This document shows positions 5,201 through 46,202 of a DNA stretch of 64,000 bases, piece after piece. Source of the DNA: Saccostrea cucullata (Eukaryota). The notes beneath the pieces are model-generated. The model was not told the origin of the DNA. It was given only the letters and a program-made list of their open reading frames with translations, and searched no databases. A program made the position numbers and the translations under genes. Location of the stretch: the NCBI RefSeq assembly GCF_032062105.1, contig NW_026923228.1:1-64000 (forward strand). The letters are read 5' to 3'. Within the stretch, counting starts at the first letter, position 1, and every line of letters starts with the position of its first letter.

Positions 5201-7302
5201 TTAAATTTGGTCATTATTTTGTTCCCACTAAGATTGTTTGATTATAGACAACAAGACTACAATGACAAAACTCTAGACTACATCCACTTTACCCAGACAT
5301 CTGAGAAAATGGCCGCCCTAACTAACAAACATCAAGGAAACGGAAAACAGTCGTGTGAATTATACACTTACATCTGTTGTGAGAGTGGTTGCAAAACCTT
5401 TAAAATCTTGAAGTGCATTGTACTTTCAGAATTAAATCAAGTCAATTACGTTGTGTACAATATAATTGTAATCATAAGAGACAATCTCTAAAATGTACGA
5501 CTTCCAACTACACTTTTACAGACACAATGTTTTATAAAAATTGCTAATTTTGACGTACACTTGACAATCATCATAAAATATGTATAATAGTAGTATACTT
5601 CTCGATTTATCACTCTTGAGCTTAATGATTAAAAAATGAATCAAATATTATTGTTAAGATTATTAAGATTGTATCTGTTTGAAAATTCAAAACAAAACGA
5701 AAATGAAAATTAAGAAAATGTCTTCAGCTTCAAATCTATATAACGTTGTCACTTTATGATATATAATCACCATTAGTATTTAATGTTTTAAAACATTTCC
5801 TTATTTAATTGAATGCATAATTATTCTTATGATTATAATTACCTACGAGTACTTTACTGGCATGCTACGAATGCAAAAAGTAGTAGCCTACTGAAATCAA
5901 AGAAAGATATTGAGTCAATTGATATCAAAACAGTCACTAGAAACCTTACCGTGAAAACTCTTTTGAAAGAAAAAATATTCTTTTTAACTAAAAAATTGCA
6001 ATTATAATTAAACGAGTTTAAACAATTAACAAGTGATATTTCCAGTTAAAGGTATCTGTTAGCTAATATATTATTCTTTGAAAGGATTCCAAAACACCTA
6101 TATTCAAAATCACCACATGGTCCTGAATGGACTATCAAGATAAAGAACAGTGAGAGAGAAACATAAACATCTTAAAATTTCAGAGATGGATTAGGTGCCA
6201 TAAAGGAGTAAATAATCTCCTGCCAATCTTTCGCACATTAACATGTGCCCCTTGTTATTACTAGACAACAAATACCAAATGTTTTAAATTGAGACTTTTA
6301 GTATCTTTTATCATTAACTTCTCTATATACATGAAACTTACCTCGTTTAGAAACGGTTTTCATGTAGAGCATGTTCTTGAAGTTCATGTAGAACATATTC
6401 TAGCGTATGGAATCGGCTTGGAGAAATGACTTTGATATGTGCAATGGTATTTCAAAGCATAAAATCGGGAAGTTGACGTTAGGAAAATTGAGGATTGACT
6501 AGACACCATCATAATGAATAGTTTTTATGCATTACACAATCCGTAGACACTGCAGTTTGTGAATAATGTCCTAGCAATTGCTTTAATAAACCTTCTGCCT
6601 GGTGACAGTTGTATTTGTAAACACAGACCAGGTCATTGTATCGACTAAAGACTTTACATGCTATTGACTTAATATGAGATAGTTGAAACCCTTGTGTCAT
6701 CAATCTATTTATCAGAAGCTTAACTTCGCTTAAAATTGTTCATTCGTAATGTATTGGGTATCAAAAAGAATTGAACACATATTATTTGCTATTTACAGGT
6801 AATAATGGAACATGTATGGAGCTAATGAAAAAAAGGAAGGTTTACGACGGGGAAATTGAAAATTCAACTGTTATCACAAAGTAAAAAAACAAAAGAAAAT
6901 CTATCAATGTCTTAAAGTTGCATCTTTGAACACTGCCATTTAGATTTCTCTTGGCAAAAAGGTCACCTTTGCCACAATAAATGTACGGCGCCATATATCA
7001 AAGTTGAGCATTTTAGCTATTGAACACGGATGTAACCTTGATACATTAAGATTGGCCATCTCTTGGCAAAAAGGTCACCTTTGCCACAATTTAACACATT
7101 TAATGGCTTTTTCGTAATATCTCTAATGAAGGCAATTGTTTTGTTTTTTCAAAAGTAGGTTACGGTATATATTGTCATTATCATTGATCAGAAATCATAA
7201 CAGAAAACATCAAATTATAATGACTTCATTCGCCACAATGTAAATGTATTTCCATACATAATCAAAAAAATAAATAAATATGATGAGAATTCTATCGTTT
7301 AT

Positions 7303-7558
7303 ATAAGTTATTATTGTAAATAATGACCTTTATGTGACATGTTCTTGTATATTTCTTTATATTAAATTATTGTATAACAATGTCTCTTTTGTAATAGACT
7401 TATGCAATGTGTCATCCGGGCTTTACTTATGTAACTTGATTTACCCCTTTCCGTATTGTTTTCAACCAATCAGCAAAGCGCTTTGCTATCACGTGTCCAT
7501 TGTTTATCTTTTTGCCAGAAGAGAAAGTCACGTCATTTGTACTGCTCAATTTTTTGTA
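7303..7558 (+). repeat. Split direct repeat A1 (copy A2 at 13979-14234)
   Basis: Apparently identical 256-bp copies at offset 6676; contains CCAAT, CACGTG and CACGTCA promoter-type motifs. Confidence 0.95.
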
Positions 7559-7767
7559 TTATTCGCTTTAATTCCCCGGAAAACCCTGATAGTTTTGGAT
7601 CTAGCCATACTACTGAAGATTTGGGGTTATGTGATGCACGTATTTGTTTCACAGATACTATAGATTTCCTGCAAAAGTGAGTTTGTGTTTTGTTGTGAAA
7701 TCAGACAGTTATGTAAGTTTTATTGTGTAAGTGTTTACATCCGGGCAACGGAGAGGACTGTCACAAC

Positions 7768-8391
7768 ATGGACGATCGCAGTATTCTTCGTGTATCTTTG
7801 ATTGGACATTCTTTTATAAGACGCCTGGGATATTACATGAACAATTCAAGTGAATTAAGTAATCTAAAACTCAACGACGAACAATATTCGGTGACCGTGA
7901 ATGGCCGTGGAGGGCTAAAGTTAAGAGACAGTCGTCTATTTAGAGACTTGTTGAATTTTGAGGTGCTCCCCCATATTTGCTTTATGCAGATAGGAGAAAA
8001 TGACATTTTGCTAAGCAGTCCTAACAATATAGCAAGAGACATTTTATCATTAGCTTCATATATTCACCTTGGTGTAGGGGTACAAATTGTTTTAATTGGT
8101 CAATTGTTTAGACGTAGACCTTGGGCCTCATCTAATGACTTTAATGACCGTGTGATCCACATAAACAAACTTTTGATGAATGAATGTAAAAAACTGGACA
8201 ATATACACTTTTGGCATCACAGAGGCTTTTGGAAAAGCTTGGACTTTTTGAGCAAGGATGGTGTACATTTGCGCACACACTCGGAGCATCATGTTGTGAC
8301 ATCTTCTCCAATGCATCGATTCTGGCGGAGTATCCGCTCTGCAGTATTGCACTACCGGCATAAGACAGGCCAGTATATTAATTTTATTTAA
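7768..8391 (+). CDS. SGNH/GDSL-type hydrolase (esterase) encoded by the Ngaro element, about 207 aa from ATG 7768
   Basis: Block I LIGHSF (Ser), block II GRGG, block III IGENDI (Asn), block V DGVHL (Asp/His); open frame without stops. Confidence 0.85.
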   Translation: MDDRSILRVSLIGHSFIRRLGYYMNNSSELSNLKLNDEQYSVTVNGRGGLKLRDSRLFRDLLNFEVLPHICFMQIGENDILLSSPNNIARDILSLASYIHLGVGVQIVLIGQLFRRRPWASSNDFNDRVIHINKLLMNECKKLDNIHFWHHRGFWKSLDFLSKDGVHLRTHSEHHVVTSSPMHRFWRSIRSAVLHYRHKTGQYINFI

Positions 8392-8913
8392 GTCATGTAT
8401 GGTCCATTAAAAGTTGATAGGGCTAGCTCATGATTGAAGTCTCATGTTTTGGTCATTTAGATACTGCATATATACATGGCCATTAACATTATAATGCTCT
8501 AAAAGTTAACAATTGCTGGTTGCATTGGGCCAATGATTTTGGAAAATATTGATTTTAATAGAACGCTGAGAAAATGACGTGCAAAATAATTTCATAATGA
8601 ATGCTGAGTATTCTTACTTTTAGCATGATTAGGCATGATGTAAAAATTTTATCTGAAAAGTATGGTAAAACATGATGCAAGTTCATAATATACTTGCGAG
8701 ACCATATGCTCAGACTTAAACAGAAATTAATGCTAAGGGTAATGCTTATGGGGTACACATGAGCTGTGATTTAAGTTGGTACTGAGTAGTTTCTTACAAA
8801 TCACAATGATTTGCACAATTAAATGGTGGTGCAATATTGTATGCTTGAGTGTTGGTTATAAGTATAAGATGAATGAATAATAATTAAAAAAAAAAAAAAA
8901 AAAAAAAAATAAA

Positions 8914-9055
8914 TGTGCAGGACCATATGCACTTGCTGTATGTTGATAGGAAAAAAAAAATGTGCAGGACCATATGCACTTGCTGTATGTTGATAGAGAG
9001 AATTAAATTTAAAAAAAAAATTGTGCAGGACCATATGCACTTGCTGTATGTTGAT
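8914..9055 (+). repeat. Three copies of a 34-bp unit separated by poly(A) tracts inside the Ngaro element
   Basis: TGTGCAGGACCATATGCACTTGCTGTATGTTGAT starts at 8914, 8961 and 9022. Confidence 0.9.
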
Positions 9056-9060
9056 TGAGT

Positions 9061-9101
<41 letters not shown>

Positions 9102-9365
9102 AAAAGTTTCTTTTTTTTTTTTATCGCAATATTGTATTAGTAGATACAGGATCATATGCATCCAAAAAAAAAAAAAAAGAAAAAAAAGAAAAAATAAATA
9201 AAAATAAAAAGCTCTTCTGGTTTCAATGTTTATAATTTTAAAAATATGTTGAATGCATATAGCATGGTGAACTTGTTGTTGAATCAAATACATTGATTGG
9301 TTGGATATTTCAAATTTTATAAAGTGTGCAGAAGTAATACTTTCATTCTCTTGCAGAGATCTACA

Positions 9366-10370
9366 ATGCCACCGAAACGGAAGCAAACTCCAGCCAAAAA
9401 CCCAACAAAGAGGCAAAAAATGGCCACCAAGCAACCTGAAGTGACACCACAGCCTACTACAGCCATTGAGCACCCTGAAGTGATCCCGGGGCCTGCCTAT
9501 GGACAAATTGATTATAACAAACTAGCTGAAGCCATGTTAGCCATATCTAAGCAACAACCTGAAAACGCCCCCTCGCAAAACACATCAGATGACAGACAGA
9601 TGCCTGTGACCTTGGAATCTCCTTCCACATCTCAAAGTGCTGAGCCAGCAACGACTTCCACATTGGGAACTCTTTTGGATCAAATTTTCCTTGGGGACCG
9701 CTCTACACACAAGGACTTAAGCCCACTGAGTAAGACAATTTCTTTAACAGATGGGATTCCTCTCAGTTCCACGGTTTCACAAAAAACCAAAACTAAGATT
9801 TGGAATAATGAATTTGTTGACTTAAGATCTTTGTTAAGTGTACGAGATGAACCACTTTCAGTGTCAATTTCATCAGGCATTATAAATGTACAGCAGAGTC
9901 CAAAATTTAAATTCCCGATCAGTATTTCCCAATGGACAGATGCATTTTTGATATTCGCATCTATCTACATTGAGAAATTTCCCCAGGAGGCACCCCATTT
10001 GTTCAAATATTGCCACATGGTCAGAGAGATCCAACAGTTACATGGGGATAATGCCTTCAGGGCTTATGATGAACATTTTCGTAAACTACGAGAATCTGTT
10101 GTTGCACCTTGGCAAATTCCGGTGCAAGAACTAAGATTGAAAGCTATAACATTGCCCAAACCTGGTTATCAAAATAAGACCGCGTTAAATCAGCCCTTTC
10201 GAGTCAAATACTGTTACCAGTTTAACAAAGGGGAACGTTGCACAAGGTCCCCATGTCAATTCAGGCACAGCTGCATGCAATGCAAGGGCAATCACCCCAA
10301 AGTCAAATGTTCCTACTCCTTTAAATCAAACTCAAATTCAAAATCTACCAACCCCAATCAAGATAAATAA
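9366..10370 (+). CDS. Gag-like ORF1 of the Ngaro element (about 334 aa)
   Basis: ATG 9366 (MPPKRK) follows a splice-acceptor-like tract. Central helical block (KIWNNEFVDL...QWTDAFLIFASIY...FRAYDEHFR) and C-terminal Cys/His finger CYQFN-C-C-H-C-C-H-C. Confidence 0.85.
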   Translation: MPPKRKQTPAKNPTKRQKMATKQPEVTPQPTTAIEHPEVIPGPAYGQIDYNKLAEAMLAISKQQPENAPSQNTSDDRQMPVTLESPSTSQSAEPATTSTLGTLLDQIFLGDRSTHKDLSPLSKTISLTDGIPLSSTVSQKTKTKIWNNEFVDLRSLLSVRDEPLSVSISSGIINVQQSPKFKFPISISQWTDAFLIFASIYIEKFPQEAPHLFKYCHMVREIQQLHGDNAFRAYDEHFRKLRESVVAPWQIPVQELRLKAITLPKPGYQNKTALNQPFRVKYCYQFNKGERCTRSPCQFRHSCMQCKGNHPKVKCSYSFKSNSNSKSTNPNQDK

Positions 10371-11919
10371 GCTTATTCATATACTACAAGGCTATGATCA
10401 AGAGAAATTAAAAGTGATTTCAGAGGGTTTTTCACAAGGTTTTAAGCTAGGATGTACATCTCCACCTACAATGAAGATCTCTAGAAATCACAAAAGTGCT
10501 TTAGATCACCCTGTAGTTATTGATCAGTTCATTAGTGTAGGGAAAGAAAAGAGTCGAATCGCGGGACCATTCAAGGAACCACCTTTTCTAAATTTCATTT
10601 CTTCTCCTCTTGGAGTGGTTCCAAAATCAGAACCGAATAAATATAGGGTAATTCATGATCTCTCCTTTCCCAAATTTGATTCAGTGAACCTTGGCATTCC
10701 TGAAGAAAATTCAAAAGTACAATACGACTCAATTGATAATATAACTGAACTTCTTCGGAAATTTGGTAAAGGGGCTTTAATGGCAAAAGCAGACATTGAG
10801 GACGCTTTTCGTATTGTACCCATACACCCTGAAGACTACAAACTCCTAGGTTTCTCCTGGGATAGTAATTTCTATTATGATAAGTGTCTACCCATGGGTG
10901 CCAGTAGCTCTTGCCAAATTTTTGAGTGTCTCAGTACCAGTTTGCAGTGGGTTATGTGTGAAAAATTTGGTGCACCTGGCATGTCCCACATGTTAGATGA
11001 CTTTTTCTTTATAGGCCCACACCGGTCTGATGCATGCCAGGCATCATTACAGAGGTTTTTAAGTATTTGTCAAGAATCTGGTATACCCATCAAATCTGAA
11101 AAAACTGAGGGTCCAACTACTACATTGACAATTTACGGCATTGAAGTCGACTCTATTGAAATGGTCTGTAGATTGCCAGAGGCTAAACTCTTAAAAATAA
11201 GGGATAGGTTACACGAAGCCAAGAATAGGAAGAAAATAACACTTAAAGACTTACAATCTTTAATAGGGCTTTTGAATTTTGCCTGTCTGGTAGTTGTCCC
11301 AGGGAGGGCTTTTCTGCGTCGCCTCATTGATTTAACTTGTGGAATAACTCAACCCCATTTTTTCATAAGGCTTACTTGTGAGGCAAGGGCTGACTTGAGT
11401 ATGTGGTCCCATTTTATAGATAACTTTAATGGGAAATCGGTTATTCTGCCAGATATTTGGGCCTCTGCTGAAAAACAATTACTTTTTACTGATGCTTCAG
11501 GGTCATTGGGCTGTGCAGCTGTTTTGGGTAGAAACTGGTTTGCCCTGGGTTGGGACGCAATCAAAGACATGTCACATCAGCAAATCGCAATTAAAGAGAT
11601 GTTCCCAATAGTGTTAGCTTTAGAGATTTGGGGATCATATCTTGCCGATAGGAAAATACTTTTCATGTCCGATAATTTAGCTGTGGTGCACGCCATAAAC
11701 AAGCAAACATGCAAGGAAAAAACTCTCATGAAACTAGTTAGGAGACTTGTTCTTGTGACCCTTTCTCAGAATATTCTTTTTAAAGCTAAGCACATTCCTG
11801 GGAAAAGTAATACTTTAGCAGATCACCTATCTCGGTTTAAATTTCAGGAGGCCTTCAGGATAGCACCTCACTTGAATCCCAGTCAAACAGTGGTGCCCAA
11901 GGACCTCTTGTCGATTTGA
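10189..11919 (+). CDS. Reverse transcriptase/RNase H (ORF2) of the Ngaro element; the frame opens at 10189 with no ATG before the conserved N-terminal region
   Basis: RT motifs SPLGVVPK, YRVIHDLS, KADIEDAFR, LPMG, HMLDDF. RNase H motifs FTDASG, IKEMFPI, SDNLAVV, NTLADHLSR. Confidence 0.93.
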   Translation: MSPFESNTVTSLTKGNVAQGPHVNSGTAACNARAITPKSNVPTPLNQTQIQNLPTPIKINKLIHILQGYDQEKLKVISEGFSQGFKLGCTSPPTMKISRNHKSALDHPVVIDQFISVGKEKSRIAGPFKEPPFLNFISSPLGVVPKSEPNKYRVIHDLSFPKFDSVNLGIPEENSKVQYDSIDNITELLRKFGKGALMAKADIEDAFRIVPIHPEDYKLLGFSWDSNFYYDKCLPMGASSSCQIFECLSTSLQWVMCEKFGAPGMSHMLDDFFFIGPHRSDACQASLQRFLSICQESGIPIKSEKTEGPTTTLTIYGIEVDSIEMVCRLPEAKLLKIRDRLHEAKNRKKITLKDLQSLIGLLNFACLVVVPGRAFLRRLIDLTCGITQPHFFIRLTCEARADLSMWSHFIDNFNGKSVILPDIWASAEKQLLFTDASGSLGCAAVLGRNWFALGWDAIKDMSHQQIAIKEMFPIVLALEIWGSYLADRKILFMSDNLAVVHAINKQTCKEKTLMKLVRRLVLVTLSQNILFKAKHIPGKSNTLADHLSRFKFQEAFRIAPHLNPSQTVVPKDLLSI

Positions 11920-12824
11920 GCCCAATCAGTAGGCAATTGCTGACTTCATCTCTTTCATCATCCACAGCCCTAGCATATCGCAAAAGTTGGCAGTATTTAC
12001 TGAAATGGAAGCCAGGACTTTCACTACCAATATCGGTGACTGATGTATGTAACTTCATTGGTGTATTGTTCTCCAATAACTACTCCCCCAGTTCTATTTT
12101 ATCACATATGTCGGCTATCAGTTTTGTTCATAAAATTTGTAATATGTCAGACCCCACTCAGGCATTTGTGGTTAAGAAAATTCTTAAAGGCTGTCAAACA
12201 TTGGGCCCAAGGAAAGACACTCGCTTACCAATAACTGCACCTATTCTACAAAGACTAGTACAGGCCCTTGATCACACAGTCAAACTCTTCTCGCTAAGAG
12301 TGCTGTTTCGTGCAGTGTTTTTGATGGCTTTCCATGCGTTTTTAAGGTTAGGGGAACTAACAGTGAAATCTGCAAAGGGTAGCGATAAAGTTTTGCAAAG
12401 GGAAGATGTAACATTTGAACACAAATCAAACTCGATTGTAGGAGTTCAAATCATCATGAGAGAATACAAAACAAACAAACACAACAAACCGTTAGTAATT
12501 TACCTGCAAGCAAGTCCAAATTCCCAATATTGTCCAGTTCAGGCATTGTCTAACTATGTTCAAACTTTCAACCACAAGACTGGACCTTTGTTTCAAACAA
12601 TGGATGGTTCACCTGTGTCTTATTCATTAGTAACTACACATTTGAAGACTGCAATACAATTTATTGGATTAGATACAGATAGCTTTAAGGGTCACAGTTT
12701 CAGGATTGGTGCTGCTACTCATGCAGCCTCCTTAGGCTATTCTGAACAAGTTATTCAAAAATTAGGCAGGTGGAATTCTGATGCCTTTCGTCGATACATT
12801 AGAATCCAGTCATTTAAAATATAG
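11916..12824 (+). CDS. Tyrosine recombinase (ORF3) of the Ngaro element; start uncertain (frame open from 11841)
   Basis: Catalytic set R (FLRLGE), K (YKTN), HxxR (GHSFRIGAAT), W (LGRWNS), Y (RRYIR). Confidence 0.95.
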   Translation: MSPISRQLLTSSLSSSTALAYRKSWQYLLKWKPGLSLPISVTDVCNFIGVLFSNNYSPSSILSHMSAISFVHKICNMSDPTQAFVVKKILKGCQTLGPRKDTRLPITAPILQRLVQALDHTVKLFSLRVLFRAVFLMAFHAFLRLGELTVKSAKGSDKVLQREDVTFEHKSNSIVGVQIIMREYKTNKHNKPLVIYLQASPNSQYCPVQALSNYVQTFNHKTGPLFQTMDGSPVSYSLVTTHLKTAIQFIGLDTDSFKGHSFRIGAATHAASLGYSEQVIQKLGRWNSDAFRRYIRIQSFKI

Positions 12825-12930
12825 GCATTTGTAAATATACATTGTATTTCTCATTGACATACTCGACTCGATGCTACCATAAAAGCCTTCTCAGGGGTTT
12901 ACATTAAATGTCAAAATTACAATAGGTAAC

Positions 12931-13126
12931 TGATCTAAACCGTCTAAAGAAAACGTAACATACAGTCGGAACCAGGTCAGAAGTCATCTGTTGGTTTCGT
13001 ATTGTATCCATAAAGATTTATAGTCCGAAATGATCTAAACTGTCTAAAGAAAACGTAACATACAGTAGGAACCAAGTCAGTAGTCATCTGTTGGTTCCGT
13101 ATTGTATCCATAAAGATTTAAAGTCC
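12931..13126 (+). repeat. Two tandem 100-bp units downstream of the YR ORF
   Basis: TGATCTAAAC... starts at 12931 and 13031, with a few substitutions between copies. Confidence 0.9.
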
Positions 13127-13534
13127 CAATTACATTCTCTTTTGTTGGTCAGAAGTGGTCTGCAGCTATAGGGCCCAATTTGCATGCAGCTTAGCCTAGG
13201 TTTCACATTTTTGTTGACGGGGCAGAAGTCGTCTGCAATCAACAAGTCCAATACTAAGAACTAGAACTGCCATTGTGCCTGGCTTGTACCGGTAGTCCAC
13301 GTTTATTGTATTTTCCTAAAAGCATTTTTATAGTTGAAAGCCTTTTACAGTTTTCGATAACATTTAGTAGTTACTGTTGTATGTTTTATATTGTACCTGT
13401 AAATATGTAGATATAGAAACTTGTCTGATATTTACAATTTTAAAAATTTTATACATTTTTTTATGGCTTGTGTTTTGCGTCTCCTGCCAAGACGCCTTTG
13501 GGTGGGTGGATCCAATTTGCAATTGGATTGTGGC

Positions 13535-13981
13535 TGTGTTTTATGTTCTTTTACCCACCTTTTTTGATAGCAGGCAGCAATGTAACACATTTATTTTCAT
13601 GTATGTTTAGAACTTTTTATGTTTAATAGGGGGTCAACTGAAGATATATAATATGTATACTATACATGACAATGTTTTTCCAGGTTTTGATTTCTTAATT
13701 AGTCTGCTGGTTGATCCCCCTTTTTTCTATTGTATATCATTTACAATGACATTATGGTGCTGGGGGTCAGATTGTGCAATATTGTGATAAAGATATGTAA
13801 TATTTTATATTTAAGTCCCCTTTCCTGACCCCCTTTCTTGTATTGTAAATATGTTTTACTACTTTTACGTCATTTACTTCAATAAATGACATTTTTCACT
13901 TCAATGATGTTGTTTGTTTTTGCCTGCTTTAGCCAAAAAACAAGCTCAGTTGTCTGGCAGGAGAACTAAGGAACATAAATA
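13535..13981 (+). repeat. Split direct repeat B1 (copy B2 at 14262-14708)
   Basis: Apparently identical 447-bp copies at offset 727; each holds AATAAA followed by a GT-rich tract. Confidence 0.95.
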
Positions 13982-15149
13982 AGTTATTATTGTAAATAAT
14001 GACCTTTATGTGACATGTTCTTGTATATTTCTTTATATTAAATTATTGTATAACAATGTCTCTTTTGTAATAGACTTATGCAATGTGTCATCCGGGCTTT
14101 ACTTATGTAACTTGATTTACCCCTTTCCGTATTGTTTTCAACCAATCAGCAAAGCGCTTTGCTATCACGTGTCCATTGTTTATCTTTTTGCCAGAAGAGA
14201 AAGTCACGTCATTTGTACTGCTCAATTTTTTGTACCCACCATCCATCCCCTTCTTCCTCCATGTGTTTTATGTTCTTTTACCCACCTTTTTTGATAGCAG
14301 GCAGCAATGTAACACATTTATTTTCATGTATGTTTAGAACTTTTTATGTTTAATAGGGGGTCAACTGAAGATATATAATATGTATACTATACATGACAAT
14401 GTTTTTCCAGGTTTTGATTTCTTAATTAGTCTGCTGGTTGATCCCCCTTTTTTCTATTGTATATCATTTACAATGACATTATGGTGCTGGGGGTCAGATT
14501 GTGCAATATTGTGATAAAGATATGTAATATTTTATATTTAAGTCCCCTTTCCTGACCCCCTTTCTTGTATTGTAAATATGTTTTACTACTTTTACGTCAT
14601 TTACTTCAATAAATGACATTTTTCACTTCAATGATGTTGTTTGTTTTTGCCTGCTTTAGCCAAAAAACAAGCTCAGTTGTCTGGCAGGAGAACTAAGGAA
14701 CATAAATACATTTATTTCTCTTTCAATCTTCAAGATTATTGATTACAATGTACAAGGAAAACAGTAAATATTCTAACAAGCCTTTTTTTTTTTACTCCTT
14801 ACAAAAAAAATTACAGCAGTGAAGGAGAAACTTCAGTAGTACTGTAGGAATATTTACTCAATAACAGGTGTAAATCATATATGAACACTTATAAACTCAA
14901 AGAAACGTTTAGAAAACTTGAATTACATCATAACGTACACTTTGCTACAAATATTCCAATAGATTGAAGTCTAGGCTTTTTCACATCATAGACAACTGCT
15001 TTTCCGAGAAAAATGGAATTCATAATTAAATCTACCTTTTCGTTGATCATTTACTAAATTGTTTTGTTAAAAACTACCTGATTGTACACACAAGTACTCT
15101 AAAGTAGATACTAAAAATATTCTTGATTTTCTATGTCATTTTCGGAGAT

Positions 15150-41800: not shown

Positions 41801-44800
41801 ATGTTTTATTTAAATTCTGCAAAGATACTGAAAGAATATGTATCCTCCAAAAAAGTTTGATACAGAAAGTGTCCTCAAAATTGTTCAAACAGGTGCAGTT
41901 TGGCCATGCAGGTGCTTGTGCTAATGCAGAGGCAGAAACAGCCTCAGCTAAAAACCAAGCTTTGACAGATGCAAAGGCTTATGTTCCCAGAAGTTTCGAT
42001 GAATTGGGCACTCTAATAAAGTAAGAAAATGTCAAAATTTAGTTTTTTTAATTTACCAGTTCTTTTACTATTAATTATTATGATTATTAAATTATTTAAA
42101 AACTCATATTATGTTGATTAAGTGATTTTGAAACACACACAGATGGTCTGGAAACATGATCTCTCTGTTAGTCACTAGTTCTCTTTCATGTTTTCATCTT
42201 GAAGTCTACAAAGACCTCATATTATATATTATATTATCATAATAATTGTTTTGTACAGAGAGGTTTATGACAAGCTGGTAGAGAATGGGACCATTGTACC
42301 AGAACCTGAGAGACCTCCACCTACAGTACCGATGGACTTCACTTGGGCTAGAGTAAGTTACTGTCAAGTGGAACATTTAATATGTAACATTAATACTTAC
42401 ATAGATGTAATGAGAGGTATTTGTACACCATTTGAGTAAGAACATTTTAAAAATTAGATTGAATTATGTCTCTTGAGTTTACAACGGATTTCCTATGATT
42501 GATATTTGAAACAGGAAATTCTTGAATGTTAGTTCCATTGAGAAGTTCAGTATCTTTGAATTCAACATGAAAGAAATTAAGAGAAAAGCAGATTCATTTT
42601 AAGTAAAAAAAGTCTAGGAATCAAAGTACCCTATGTGTATCCCTTTTTTGCAGGAGCTTGGGTTGATCAGGAAACCTGCATCCTTTATGACCAGTATCTG
42701 TGATGAGCGGGGACAAGAACTATTGTATGCTGGGATACCAATCACGGACATTTTCAAAGAAGATATGGGTATCGGAGGTGTGCTTAGTTTGCTTTGGTTC
42801 CAGAGAAGGTTTGTCTTGAGATTATCTGTTTAACTATCTGTATTCAGCTAAAGATGAATATTAGGAAAATGGAAAAAATAGGCTCATCTTCAATAGCCAA
42901 GGGCTTCTGATCCAAAATCTACTCTAGAGTAGATTTCAAATCAGAGTCCCTTGGCTAGCTAGTTGAAATAGGCTTTGCCTGTTGCCAAATCCCATTCTAT
43001 TTCTTGTAAAAAAAAAGATGTATAAATAGAAATGAATATCATAAGTACTTCATTTACTTAGATTATGTCAAGATTGTGCTCTACATTATTGAGCACTGTT
43101 GATTAAAGGGACACATATTTTGCATCAGGCAAAATTCATGACCTTCTATTGATCAAATGTGGTGCTCGATGCAAAACTTTTAAGAAGTTCAATTTGAATT
43201 AAATCTGTGTGTTAATAAAAACAATATATGCTATACTTTGAACTGATATTTGTTCCATATCTTATTTCCAGATTACCAAAATATGCCACAAAGTTCATAG
43301 AGATGTGTTTAATGGTAACAGCTGACCATGGACCCGCCGTGTCAGGGGCTCATAACACCATCGTGTGTGCTCGAGCGGGCAAAGACCTGGTGTCCTGCCT
43401 AGCGTCTGGTCTCCTCACCATTGTAAGCTCATTCTATTATTAAATTTGATCTGACAAAGAGAAATTATTAAACTTGAATCTGTTCTTGAAGTATAGAATG
43501 GATTTGAGAAGTTAAGTTTTATAAATAAATAAAAACTAAATTTTGATGGATTTGAAAACTTAATGAACTAAACAATAATTCTTTGATAAATTGAAATAGA
43601 CTTAAAAAGTGTGGAATGCCATCTGAAATACTTTTATAATTTTACCTACAGGGAGATAGGTTTGGAGGGGCCCTGGATGCAGCAGCCAAACAGTTCTCTG
43701 ATGCCTATACCAGTGATATGATACCAATGGAGTTTGTCAACAACATGAGAAAGGAGGGGAAACTTATCATGGGGATAGGTCACAGGGTCAAATCAGTAAG
43801 TAAGGATAGGTCAAAGGGTCATATCAGTAGGAAAAGATAGGTCACAGGGTCAAATCAGTCGGAAAAGATAGGTCACAGGGTCAAATCAGTAGGAAAAGAT
43901 AGGTCACAGGGTCAAATCAGTGAGTACGGATAGGTCACAAGGTCAAATCAATAAGTAAGGATAGGTCAAAGGGTCAGATCAGTAAGAAAAGATAGATCAC
44001 AAGTCAATTCAGTAGGTAAAGATAGGTCTCAGGGCTAACTCGTCAAGTAAGAATATGCCACAGGGTCAATCAGTAAAGTTAAACGAAATTAAGGATAGAT
44101 CACAGGATTTTTTTTTGCAATATTCAGTTTGCCTTTTTTTCAGATCAATAATCCTGACATGAGAGTGGTGATACTTAAGGAGTATGCCCAGAAAAACTTC
44201 CCTGCTACACCTCTACTGGACTACGCCATAGAAGTGGAGAAAATTACAACTTCTAAGGTAATAACAGAAATTAAAGGGTAGAAAAAGCATGGAGTGATCT
44301 TAGTATGTCACTTTCATCATTGTCATTAACAACCTGTAGCATACATGCAAATTAATTATACCCCCCGCAAACGAAGTTTTGGGGGGGTATATGGTAATTA
44401 CCTTGTCCGTCCGTCCGTCTGTCTTGCTGTCTGTCTGTCCAGCTGTCTGTGCAAAAGTGTCCGGTTCATATCTTTCTTACGGAGGAACATTAGAATCTAC
44501 TGCTCCACACAAAGATTGCACTTGACCTAAGGGTGTGTCTTGACCTTGACCCAAGGTCATTTAGGGAAGTTCAAGGTCACTGGAAGAAAAATTTCATAAT
44601 TCGTGTCCAGTCCATATCTTTCTTATGGATAAACTTAGTAGGTTCTAATTTCACACAAAGATTGCACTTGAACTAAGGGTGTGTCATGACCTTGACCCAA
44701 GGTCATTTGGGGAAGTTCAAGGTCACTGGAAGAAAAAGTTCATAATTCATGTCCGGTCCATATCTTTCTTATTGATAAACTTGGTAGGTTCTAATTTCAC

Positions 44801-46202
44801 ACAAAGATTGCACATGACCTAAGGGTGTGTCATGACCTTGACCCAAGGTCATTTGGGGAACTTCAAGGTCACTGGAAGAAAAATTTCATAATTTGTGTCC
44901 ATATCTTTCTTATGGATAAACTTGGTAGGTTCTTATTCCACACCAAGATTCCTCCTGACCTTAGGGTGTGCCTTGACCTTTAACCAAGGTCCTTTTTGGA
45001 ACTTCAAGGTCACTGGAAGAAAAATTTCATAATTCGTGTCCTCTTCTTATGGATAAACTTGGAAGGTTCTAATTTCACACAAAGATTGCTCATGACCTAA
45101 GGATGTGTCATGACCTTATGTCAAGGTCACTTGGGGAAGTTCAAGATCACTGGAAATTTTTTTTATAATTTTTGTCTGGTCCATATCTTTCTTTATTATG
45201 GAAAAACTTGAATCTACTACTTCACACAAACATTTCTTATGACCTGAGGTTGTGTCATGACCTTGAACTAAGGTCATTTATGCAAGTTCAAGGTCACTGA
45301 CAGAAAAAGTTCATAATTCGTGTCTGGTCTGTATATTTAGTGTATTTTTGTTATTAGGCAGCACCTTCGTTGCATTTATAAAAAATATAATGAGCAATTA
45401 CATTTGCACTAAAAATGTTTTAGCATTTCTCTCTTCTCTTAGATCCATAAAATATTCATGATTTAGCACTTCTGAAAAAACCAGAGGGGGCCATTTTGTT
45501 CCGTTTGGACAGTTCTAGTTTATATTCAAATGGGAAGAGGGATTAAATCCTTTTACTGCTACATGTGCCATCATTTCTCTTTTTTGAAAACTCGTTTACT
45601 TCACTTTTCTGGATTAATAACTTTATGAATGTAACAATGTACATCTGGAATGATCAATTAATGAGCACATGTCCTCAATTCATTCAGCTTATTTATGCCT
45701 CTAAGTGGAATGGCAGTTGTTCTCTATATTTTGATTTATCAACACAGCAAGATTATAATGAGTGCTTGTATTTTTTATTTTCTAGAAACCTAACCTAATC
45801 CTGAATGTGGATGGTTTTATTGGAGTGGCATTTGTTGATCTGTTGAACAACTGTGGATGTTTTACTGGTGAGGAGGCCAGAGAATTGATAGATGTCGGGG
45901 CCCTCAATGGGTTATTTGTACTAGGTCGTAGCATGGGATTTATTGGTAAGTGTGATAACCCATAGCCCCATATGCATATATTTAAAAACTACTTCTGAAT
46001 ATTTTCAGCTAAATTGAATTTTTATTTAGTGTTTGTAGCACTTCAAGGAACCCATTTTGATAACTCACAACTTGTTTTTTAAGGTCATTTCCTGGACCAG
46101 AAACGACTGAAGCAGGGACTGTACCGACATCCTTGGGACGATATCTCCTATGTTATGCCAGAAACTATGGGATTGATGGGGGAGGATACAGATAAAATCT
46201 AG
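29851..46202 (+). CDS. ACLY: ATP-citrate lyase (ATP-citrate synthase), single-chain animal type, about 1098 aa, 26 coding exons
   Basis: Exons 29851-30000, 30434-30556, 32140-32202, 32470-32568, 32856-32947, 34267-34346, 34771-34901, 35015-35133, 35377-35575, 35881-35998, 37013-37158, 39501-39748, 39864-39916, 40028-40143, 40373-40477, 40882-40973, 41196-41382, 41633-41743, 41893-42020, 42259-42352, 42654-42808, 43272-43422, 43652-43795, 44144-44257, 45786-45945, 46084-46202. All introns GT-AG, phases compatible, total 3297 nt. Motifs [41 protein letters not shown] (phospho-His), [32 protein letters not shown]. Confidence 0.97.
33118..34160. mobile_element. Tc1/mariner-type MITE in ACLY intron
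   Basis: TA at 33116-33117 and 34161-34162; TIRs CGAGGGTTTCCCGTAAGAATCGTGGACAA / TTGTCCACGATTTTACGGGACAACCCTCG. Confidence 0.85.
36153..36940. mobile_element. hAT-type MITE in ACLY intron
   Basis: TIRs TAGGGATGTCAA / TTGACATCCCTA; 8-bp TSD CTATTTAA (36145-36152, 36941-36948); subterminal TCGA-rich motifs. Confidence 0.9.
43774..44106 (+). repeat. About 10 tandem copies of a 31-bp unit made from the end of an ACLY exon plus its splice donor
   Basis: Unit GATAGGTCACAGGGTCAAATCA+GTAAGTAAG and variants. Confidence 0.9.
44356..45520 (+). mobile_element. Helentron-associated non-autonomous element (HINE/pearl-like) with about 6 internal ~146-bp tandem repeats
   Basis: 5' TTATACCCCCCGC...GGGGGGTATA hairpin; (GTCY)n microsatellite; units starting near 44467, 44613, 44759, 44900, 45040, 45182; 3' GAGGGGG plus short palindrome ending in TT. 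Confidence 0.8.

Follow-up and report, generated by a model that had tools for sequence, protein, structure and literature searches.

Codon-level conservation points to a +1 frameshift between gag and reverse transcriptase in Ngaro-type retrotransposons of Saccostrea cucullata

INTRODUCTION

How a reverse transcriptase (RT) is translated when its reading frame offers no start codon is the question raised by a 7.4-kb Ngaro-type tyrosine-recombinase retrotransposon of Saccostrea cucullata. The element is bounded by split direct repeats and occupies positions 7300-14716 of a 64,000-nucleotide stretch (positions 1 to 64,000 of contig NW_026923228.1, RefSeq assembly GCF_032062105.1; hereafter the window). 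When its gag, RT and tyrosine recombinase (YR) frames are compared, only gag has a start codon ahead of the conserved part. A preliminary description of the window proposed that RT is made as a Gag-Pol fusion by programmed +1 ribosomal frameshifting at CCC_UUU_CGA, a site of the kind used by influenza PA-X. An answer of this kind would be precise and testable, and would apply to a large animal group of tyrosine-recombinase retrotransposons.

Signals of this class have been described in a few settings. In influenza A PA-X, +1 slippage on UCC_UUU_CGU was shown by a mass spectrometry peptide and amounts to about 0.7-1.3% (PMC3498833), while PLEKHM2 shifts at about 1% on UCC_UUU_CGG, also by mass spectrometry; the motif is given there as YCC_UUU_CG, and the class is described as needing no 3' RNA structure (10.1101/2024.08.30.610563). 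For amalgaviruses, +1 frameshifting at UUU_CGN has been proposed (PMC5052127). What the E-site and A-site codons contribute in the PA-X class is called unresolved in passages of PMC3498833 and PMC8310308. Among retrotransposons, yeast Ty1 and Ty3 join Gag to the polymerase by a +1 shift (PMC5052127, PMC5009743), but they use another signal (CUU_AGG_C in Ty1), are LTR elements with protease and integrase, and live in fungal hosts. Animal gag-pol junctions are mostly -1, in contrast to the +1 arrangement considered here, and of the 51 animal LTR retroelements in a survey cited in PMC5009743, only 2 have pol in +1.

The passages on Ngaro in 10.1101/2021.08.05.455354 and PMC4157794 give no expression route for RT or YR. 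In the literature we found no report that DIRS or Ngaro elements carry a UUU_C motif or use programmed frameshifting, and neither appears in passages of PMC3783388, PMC8547959, PMC3266345, PMC7192593, PMC6681497, PMC8310308, PMC12440569, 10.1101/2022.06.16.496473 and PMC5009743; a general suggestion of frameshifting may be contained in the founding Ngaro papers and in Repbase reports. The recoding signal is of a known kind, and its occurrence in this retrotransposon class is what we did not find described.

MATERIALS AND METHODS

A search with the N-terminal half of RT gave 2135 candidates from the same genome, of which the best 150 were scored; families were collected from the 110 loci that were examined (30 from the initial search plus 80 picked from the list, with many near-duplicates skipped). 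Loci were kept if the gag frame was long, the RT frame open and gag one base behind RT; this left 66 intact copies, which were grouped into 35 families at 85% RT identity. The intactness filter excluded 44 loci, and 39 of these are damaged siblings that share at least 85% identity with an intact copy. For other hosts, a metagenome scan gave 80 loci. After removal of 27 that were broken or too short, the 53 with sufficient upstream DNA formed 30 clusters, of which three were broken and 27 are intact families. The control tests of codon conservation define sites by amino acids rather than by bases.

RESULTS AND DISCUSSION

Anatomy of the element

The element fits the structural definition of Ngaro (10.1101/2021.08.05.455354; also PMC4157794), a member of the order DIRS (Table 1). 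Its gag, RT/RNase H and YR frames follow one another on one strand, internal repeats come after YR, and the split direct repeats are arranged as A1 ... B1-A2-B2. There is no Pfam match to a methyltransferase domain in the element, and the RT frame stops 27 codons past the RNase H end motif. An SGNH hydrolase open reading frame is optional in Ngaro. The candidate for it here precedes gag, whereas in the amphibian Ngaro elements of 10.1101/2021.08.05.455354 the hydrolase frame comes after YR. The likeness of this candidate is weak by both measures (Pfam Lipase_GDSL, E=0.072, below the cut-off; PDB 4c1b, E=0.064). A homologue record, P0023, is a gene model that fuses gag to a sequence similar to this frame.

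The RT/RNase H frame matches RVT_1 (E=8.9e-11) and, below the cut-off, RT_RNaseH (E=8.6e-4), while the zinc-finger region of Gag reaches only E=1.2 with zf-CCCH_10. The gag frame is open over 9297-10370, with its first ATG at 9366, and the named protein homologues come from bivalves. Just 5' of this ATG, a pyrimidine tract at 9340-9358 ends in TTGCAG, a likely acceptor for an upstream exon. Non-coding short repeats lie inside the element at 8904-9072 (three repeats of about 61 nt set between runs of A) and at 12928-13127 (two copies of 100 nt). Elsewhere in the window there are tandem arrays at 43743-45368 and 53970-55067, with units of 31, about 146 and 50-66 nt.

Table 1. Features of the element, in window coordinates
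Feature	Position	Strand	Remarks
Split direct repeat A1	7300..7558	+	100% identity to A2 over 259 nt
SGNH/GDSL hydrolase-like ORF (weak likeness)	7717..8391	+	First ATG 7768; 5' of gag
gag-like ORF, 334 aa	9366..10370	+	37 homologues; Cys/His zinc-finger region at end
Predicted phase-1 splice donor GTAAGA	9730..9735	+	Inside gag; junction of protein record P0016
Last RT-frame stop before overlap, TAA	10186..10188	+	
RT/RNase H frame	10189..11919	+	Stop to stop; +1 to gag; conserved part from near 10342
Predicted +1 frameshift site CAG_CCC_TTT_CGA	10191..10202	+	Slip from TTT 10197-10199 to TTC 10198-10200; codon-level conservation
Zinc-finger region of Gag	10212..10310	+	Cys/His pattern in gags; within gag/RT overlap
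Predicted YR splice acceptor	11828..11847	+	Pyrimidine-rich, ending TTTCAG; P0016 and family conservation
Tyrosine recombinase (YR) frame	11841..12824	+	Pfam Phage_integrase E=5.7e-07; no ATG before conserved N-terminal part
Split direct repeat B1	13535..13988	+	99.6% identity to B2 over 455 nt
Split direct repeat A2	13976..14234	+	Identical to A1
Split direct repeat B2	14262..14716	+	Pairs with B1

Probable splicing of the recombinase

The recombinase is likely made by splicing from gag to YR. A Saccostrea cucullata protein record, P0016, exactly matches Gag residues 1-121 and the final 324 residues of YR, and this match implies, as a gene model, an intron at 9730-11847. The predicted 2.1-kb intron would remove the gag core and RT and join the N-terminus of gag to the start-less recombinase. 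All 25 families scored (10 of the 35 could not be scored) have a same-phase YAG and its pyrimidine tract 3' of the RNase H end motif, with a mean pyrimidine fraction of 0.70. Of the 24 families with the gag-core anchor, 15 have a phase-1 GTRAG donor at a distance of 23-45 codons 5' of the core.

A UUU_C site at the gag/RT overlap

The layout on which the preliminary description built is confirmed by the sequence. The RT frame is +1 to gag and is closed by the TAA at 10186-10188, gag reads CCC TTT CGA at 10194-10202 with TTC (10198-10200) in the RT frame, and no ATG precedes the RT core in that frame. The first one lies 44 codons past position 10339, within the RT domain, and is missing from a sibling copy (L020, 95% identical), whose first ATG is codon 147. 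The site matches the motif YCC_UUU_CG of the PLEKHM2 paper. A second gag-frame TTT_CG is found at 10077, where the +1 frame closes at 10132; a single TTT_CG is not rare, and it is the conservation across families that exceeds chance.

A gag-frame TTT_C inside the open RT frame is present in all 35 families and in all 66 intact copies, a count in which the site was chosen by the motif itself, the filter required gag in this frame, and the families are related and so not independent. Pairwise RT identity among these families is 0.38-0.78 (median 0.47). All five filtered-out loci that are not damaged siblings also carry CCC TTT CG; the motif is lost in a few damaged copies (e.g. L059 and L118), and two loci (L040 and L041) have unrelated upstream DNA. 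The codon after TTT is CGT in 22 families, CGA in five and CGC in two, and CCT, CAA, CAG, CTT or CTC in the other six; the codon before it is CCC in 21 of 35. Where the residues are Pro and Arg, the site has CCC in 21 of 25 Pro codons and CGN in 29 of 29 Arg codons, and where the A-site residue changes to Gln, Pro or Leu the C after TTT stays constant. The expectation that the Pro-Phe-Arg codons would be fixed as xCC TTT CG thus stood as regards conservation at codon level, with TTT_C as the fixed core in 35 of 35 families; the full motif did not hold, since CAN, CCN or CTN follows TTT in six families and a residue other than Pro precedes it in ten. Conservation also extends outwards. Where Gln is encoded two codons 5' of the site (10191-10193 in the window and its equivalents), it is CAG in 18 of 18 cases while CAA is commoner in gag, and the sequence 3' of the site is biased in G/C.

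Conservation beyond amino acids and ancestry

These codons might be kept merely by amino-acid constraint in two frames or by common descent. By the genetic code, a Phe-Arg in gag that overlaps a Phe of the RT frame would have to be encoded as TTT CG, and the families do share ancestry. Sites defined by amino acids in the linker speak otherwise: Phe-Arg pairs are TTT_CGN in 32 of 34 cases and Pro-Phe pairs TTT_C in 25 of 26, against TTT_CGN in only seven of 24 families for the conserved Phe-Arg of the gag core (families with that anchor) and TTT_C in seven of 79 other Phe codons of the same dual-frame overlap. Linker TTT_C occurs in 23 of 24 anchored families where amino acids and gag codon usage predict 11.3 (P about 2e-9, assuming independent families, which they are not). 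Columns that are conserved in the same families vary freely in their codons: the TTT share is 0.71 on average and at most 0.93 for 23 Phe columns, CGN averages 0.40 with a maximum of 0.67 for eight Arg columns, and CCC averages 0.19 with a maximum of 0.35 for 20 Pro columns. They share the ancestry of the same families yet never reach the values of the predicted shift site. RT-frame residues around the site are not conserved, and in the families without an ATG the RT frame at the site could not be read without a shift. Constraint or descent would also leave RT without an expression route, and we regard this explanation as extremely unlikely.

The motif might instead be some other DNA or RNA signal, such as an internal pyrimidine-rich transcription start or a packaging or priming signal, with RT translated from its own AUG or a non-AUG codon. 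The conservation does reach CAG_CCC_TTT_CGT, which is more than slippage needs, and RT-frame ATGs are common in the overlap: 26 of 35 families have one between the site and the RT core, which also counts against the frameshift mechanism. These ATGs are scattered, with no conserved RT-frame ATG and no shared position among the 35 families, and the remaining nine have none between site and core. Such a signal would not require the gag phase, yet TTTCG words within 75 nt 5' of the zinc finger are in gag phase in 31 of 31 cases (control gag words fall into the three phases as 5, 8 and 2), as are 25 of 25 in the open overlap of the metagenome families, and the phase is held while the distance to the finger ranges from 4 to 23 codons. 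The constant +1 position of RT would also go unexplained. We consider this reading improbable.

Splicing from gag into RT, with the conserved bases as part of a splice acceptor, deserves attention in elements that do appear to splice, as the gag-YR junction indicates, and 19 of 35 families have an AG ahead of the Pro codon. The invariant bases, however, are TTT_C and not this AG, which is absent from the other 16 families, and the pyrimidine fraction before it is 0.42 compared with 0.70 at the YR acceptor. Joined to the conserved phase-1 donor, it would lead into the wrong frame. Phase-compatible YAGs in the overlap are scattered and none is common to all families, so that no conserved RT acceptor emerges, and an RT frame open from the motif through the finger would be needless. 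We judge this route very unlikely; on the sequence evidence, both splicing and an own start for RT are disfavoured.

The RT frame is open for a mean of 19 codons 5' of the site, as its stop rate of 5.1% predicts, and is stop-free for 33-89 codons 3' of it, of which 33 are imposed by the filter.

Proposed mechanism

The frames, the absent start codon, the codon-level conservation and the phase all agree with the Gag-Pol fusion that the preliminary description put forward, and from them we infer the frameshifting itself. Very likely, in our view, ribosomes shift by +1 at CCC_UUU_CGA in the manner of the PA-X/PLEKHM2 class and so make RT as part of a Gag-Pol fusion. By the precedent of PA-X and PLEKHM2, UUU (Gag codon 278) would sit in the P site with a slowly filled CGN in the A site; tRNA-Phe would re-pair from UUU to UUC, and reading would resume at 10201. 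The product would be an 850-aa protein (278 Gag plus 572 RT-frame residues) alongside the 334-aa Gag, and in this element the fusion would lack the zinc finger. The recombinase would be made separately, with gag codon 122 spliced to the acceptor in the last part of the RT frame. Efficiency is expected to be low, about 1% in tested examples, with no 3' structure required.

In PA-X, PLEKHM2 and the amalgaviruses, as in these elements, a +1 overlap carries, close to its 5' end, a zero-frame UUU_C, with a preference for CGN after it and xCC before it and no needed 3' structure. As in PA-X, the zero-frame UUU_C here is followed by a long open +1 frame and is conserved at codon level, with CGN preferred in the A site and YCC in the E site. 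The present case differs in being a retrotransposon and in having a predicted Gag-Pol product; its E-site codon is mostly CCC, its A-site variants include CAN, CCN and CUN, and it has the conserved CAG upstream. Several points speak against the mechanism, among them the five metagenome families described below, which have RT in +1 but no gag-frame TTT_C. In the PA-X context, frameshifting fell by 40-70% when the E-site UCC was replaced by CCC or by another codon (PMC3498833), yet CCC is the commonest here. tRNA slippage does not account for the upstream CAG and the 3' G/C bias, which could point to a more extensive RNA signal. In the 35 families, RNA structure 3' of the site scores like the upstream control (mean z -0.43 with four below -2, against a mean of 0.2 with three below -2), and no conserved stimulator is therefore indicated.

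A -2 shift, or polymerase slippage on the U run, would lead to the same final frame, and some families do have runs of four or five U. However, CCC_UUU_C, found in 21 families, gives no -2 re-pairing and has a run of three U, while +1 re-pairing depends on a C after UUU, the base that is fixed here. Peptide data for PA-X ruled out -2 (PMC3498833), and we assign this alternative a nearly negligible probability. If the +1 mechanism is true, the PA-X class of sites, so far seen in RNA viruses and a few vertebrate genes, enters mobile DNA.

Relatives with a conserved, moved or missing site

Among the 27 intact metagenome families, 22 have a gag-frame TTT_C and 20 have TTT_CG. Some lineages carry the site 3' of the zinc finger (metagenome loci L139, L140, L141 and L197, the own-genome family L107, and also L096), so that the predicted Gag-Pol retains the finger there; the RT frame of L197 has no ATG and opens just one codon ahead of TTT CGT. 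The proposal that the fusion trades away the finger is accordingly supported for the window element and fails as a general rule. A scan of viral contigs gave 145 pattern matches, none of them a relative.

We lean towards a broader picture, with less confidence than for the frameshift in this element, in which one transcript with one start codon would yield three proteins in a wide animal Ngaro group: Gag, a +1-shift Gag-Pol and a spliced Gag-recombinase. The dozens of families would then form the largest natural series of UUU_C sites, with the extended CAG_CCC_UUU_CGU, A-site variants, sites moved across the finger and one group that may use a CCC slip site. More than 50 diverged natural variants provide a ready panel for the roles of the E-site and A-site codons.

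The remaining five of the 27 metagenome families keep RT in +1 and have no gag-frame TTT_C. These clusters (L176, L178, L186, L187 and L190) are similar, at 37-39% identity, and have in common a GGA CCC about 8 codons past the last RT-frame stop, where our guess is that a proline tRNA slips instead.
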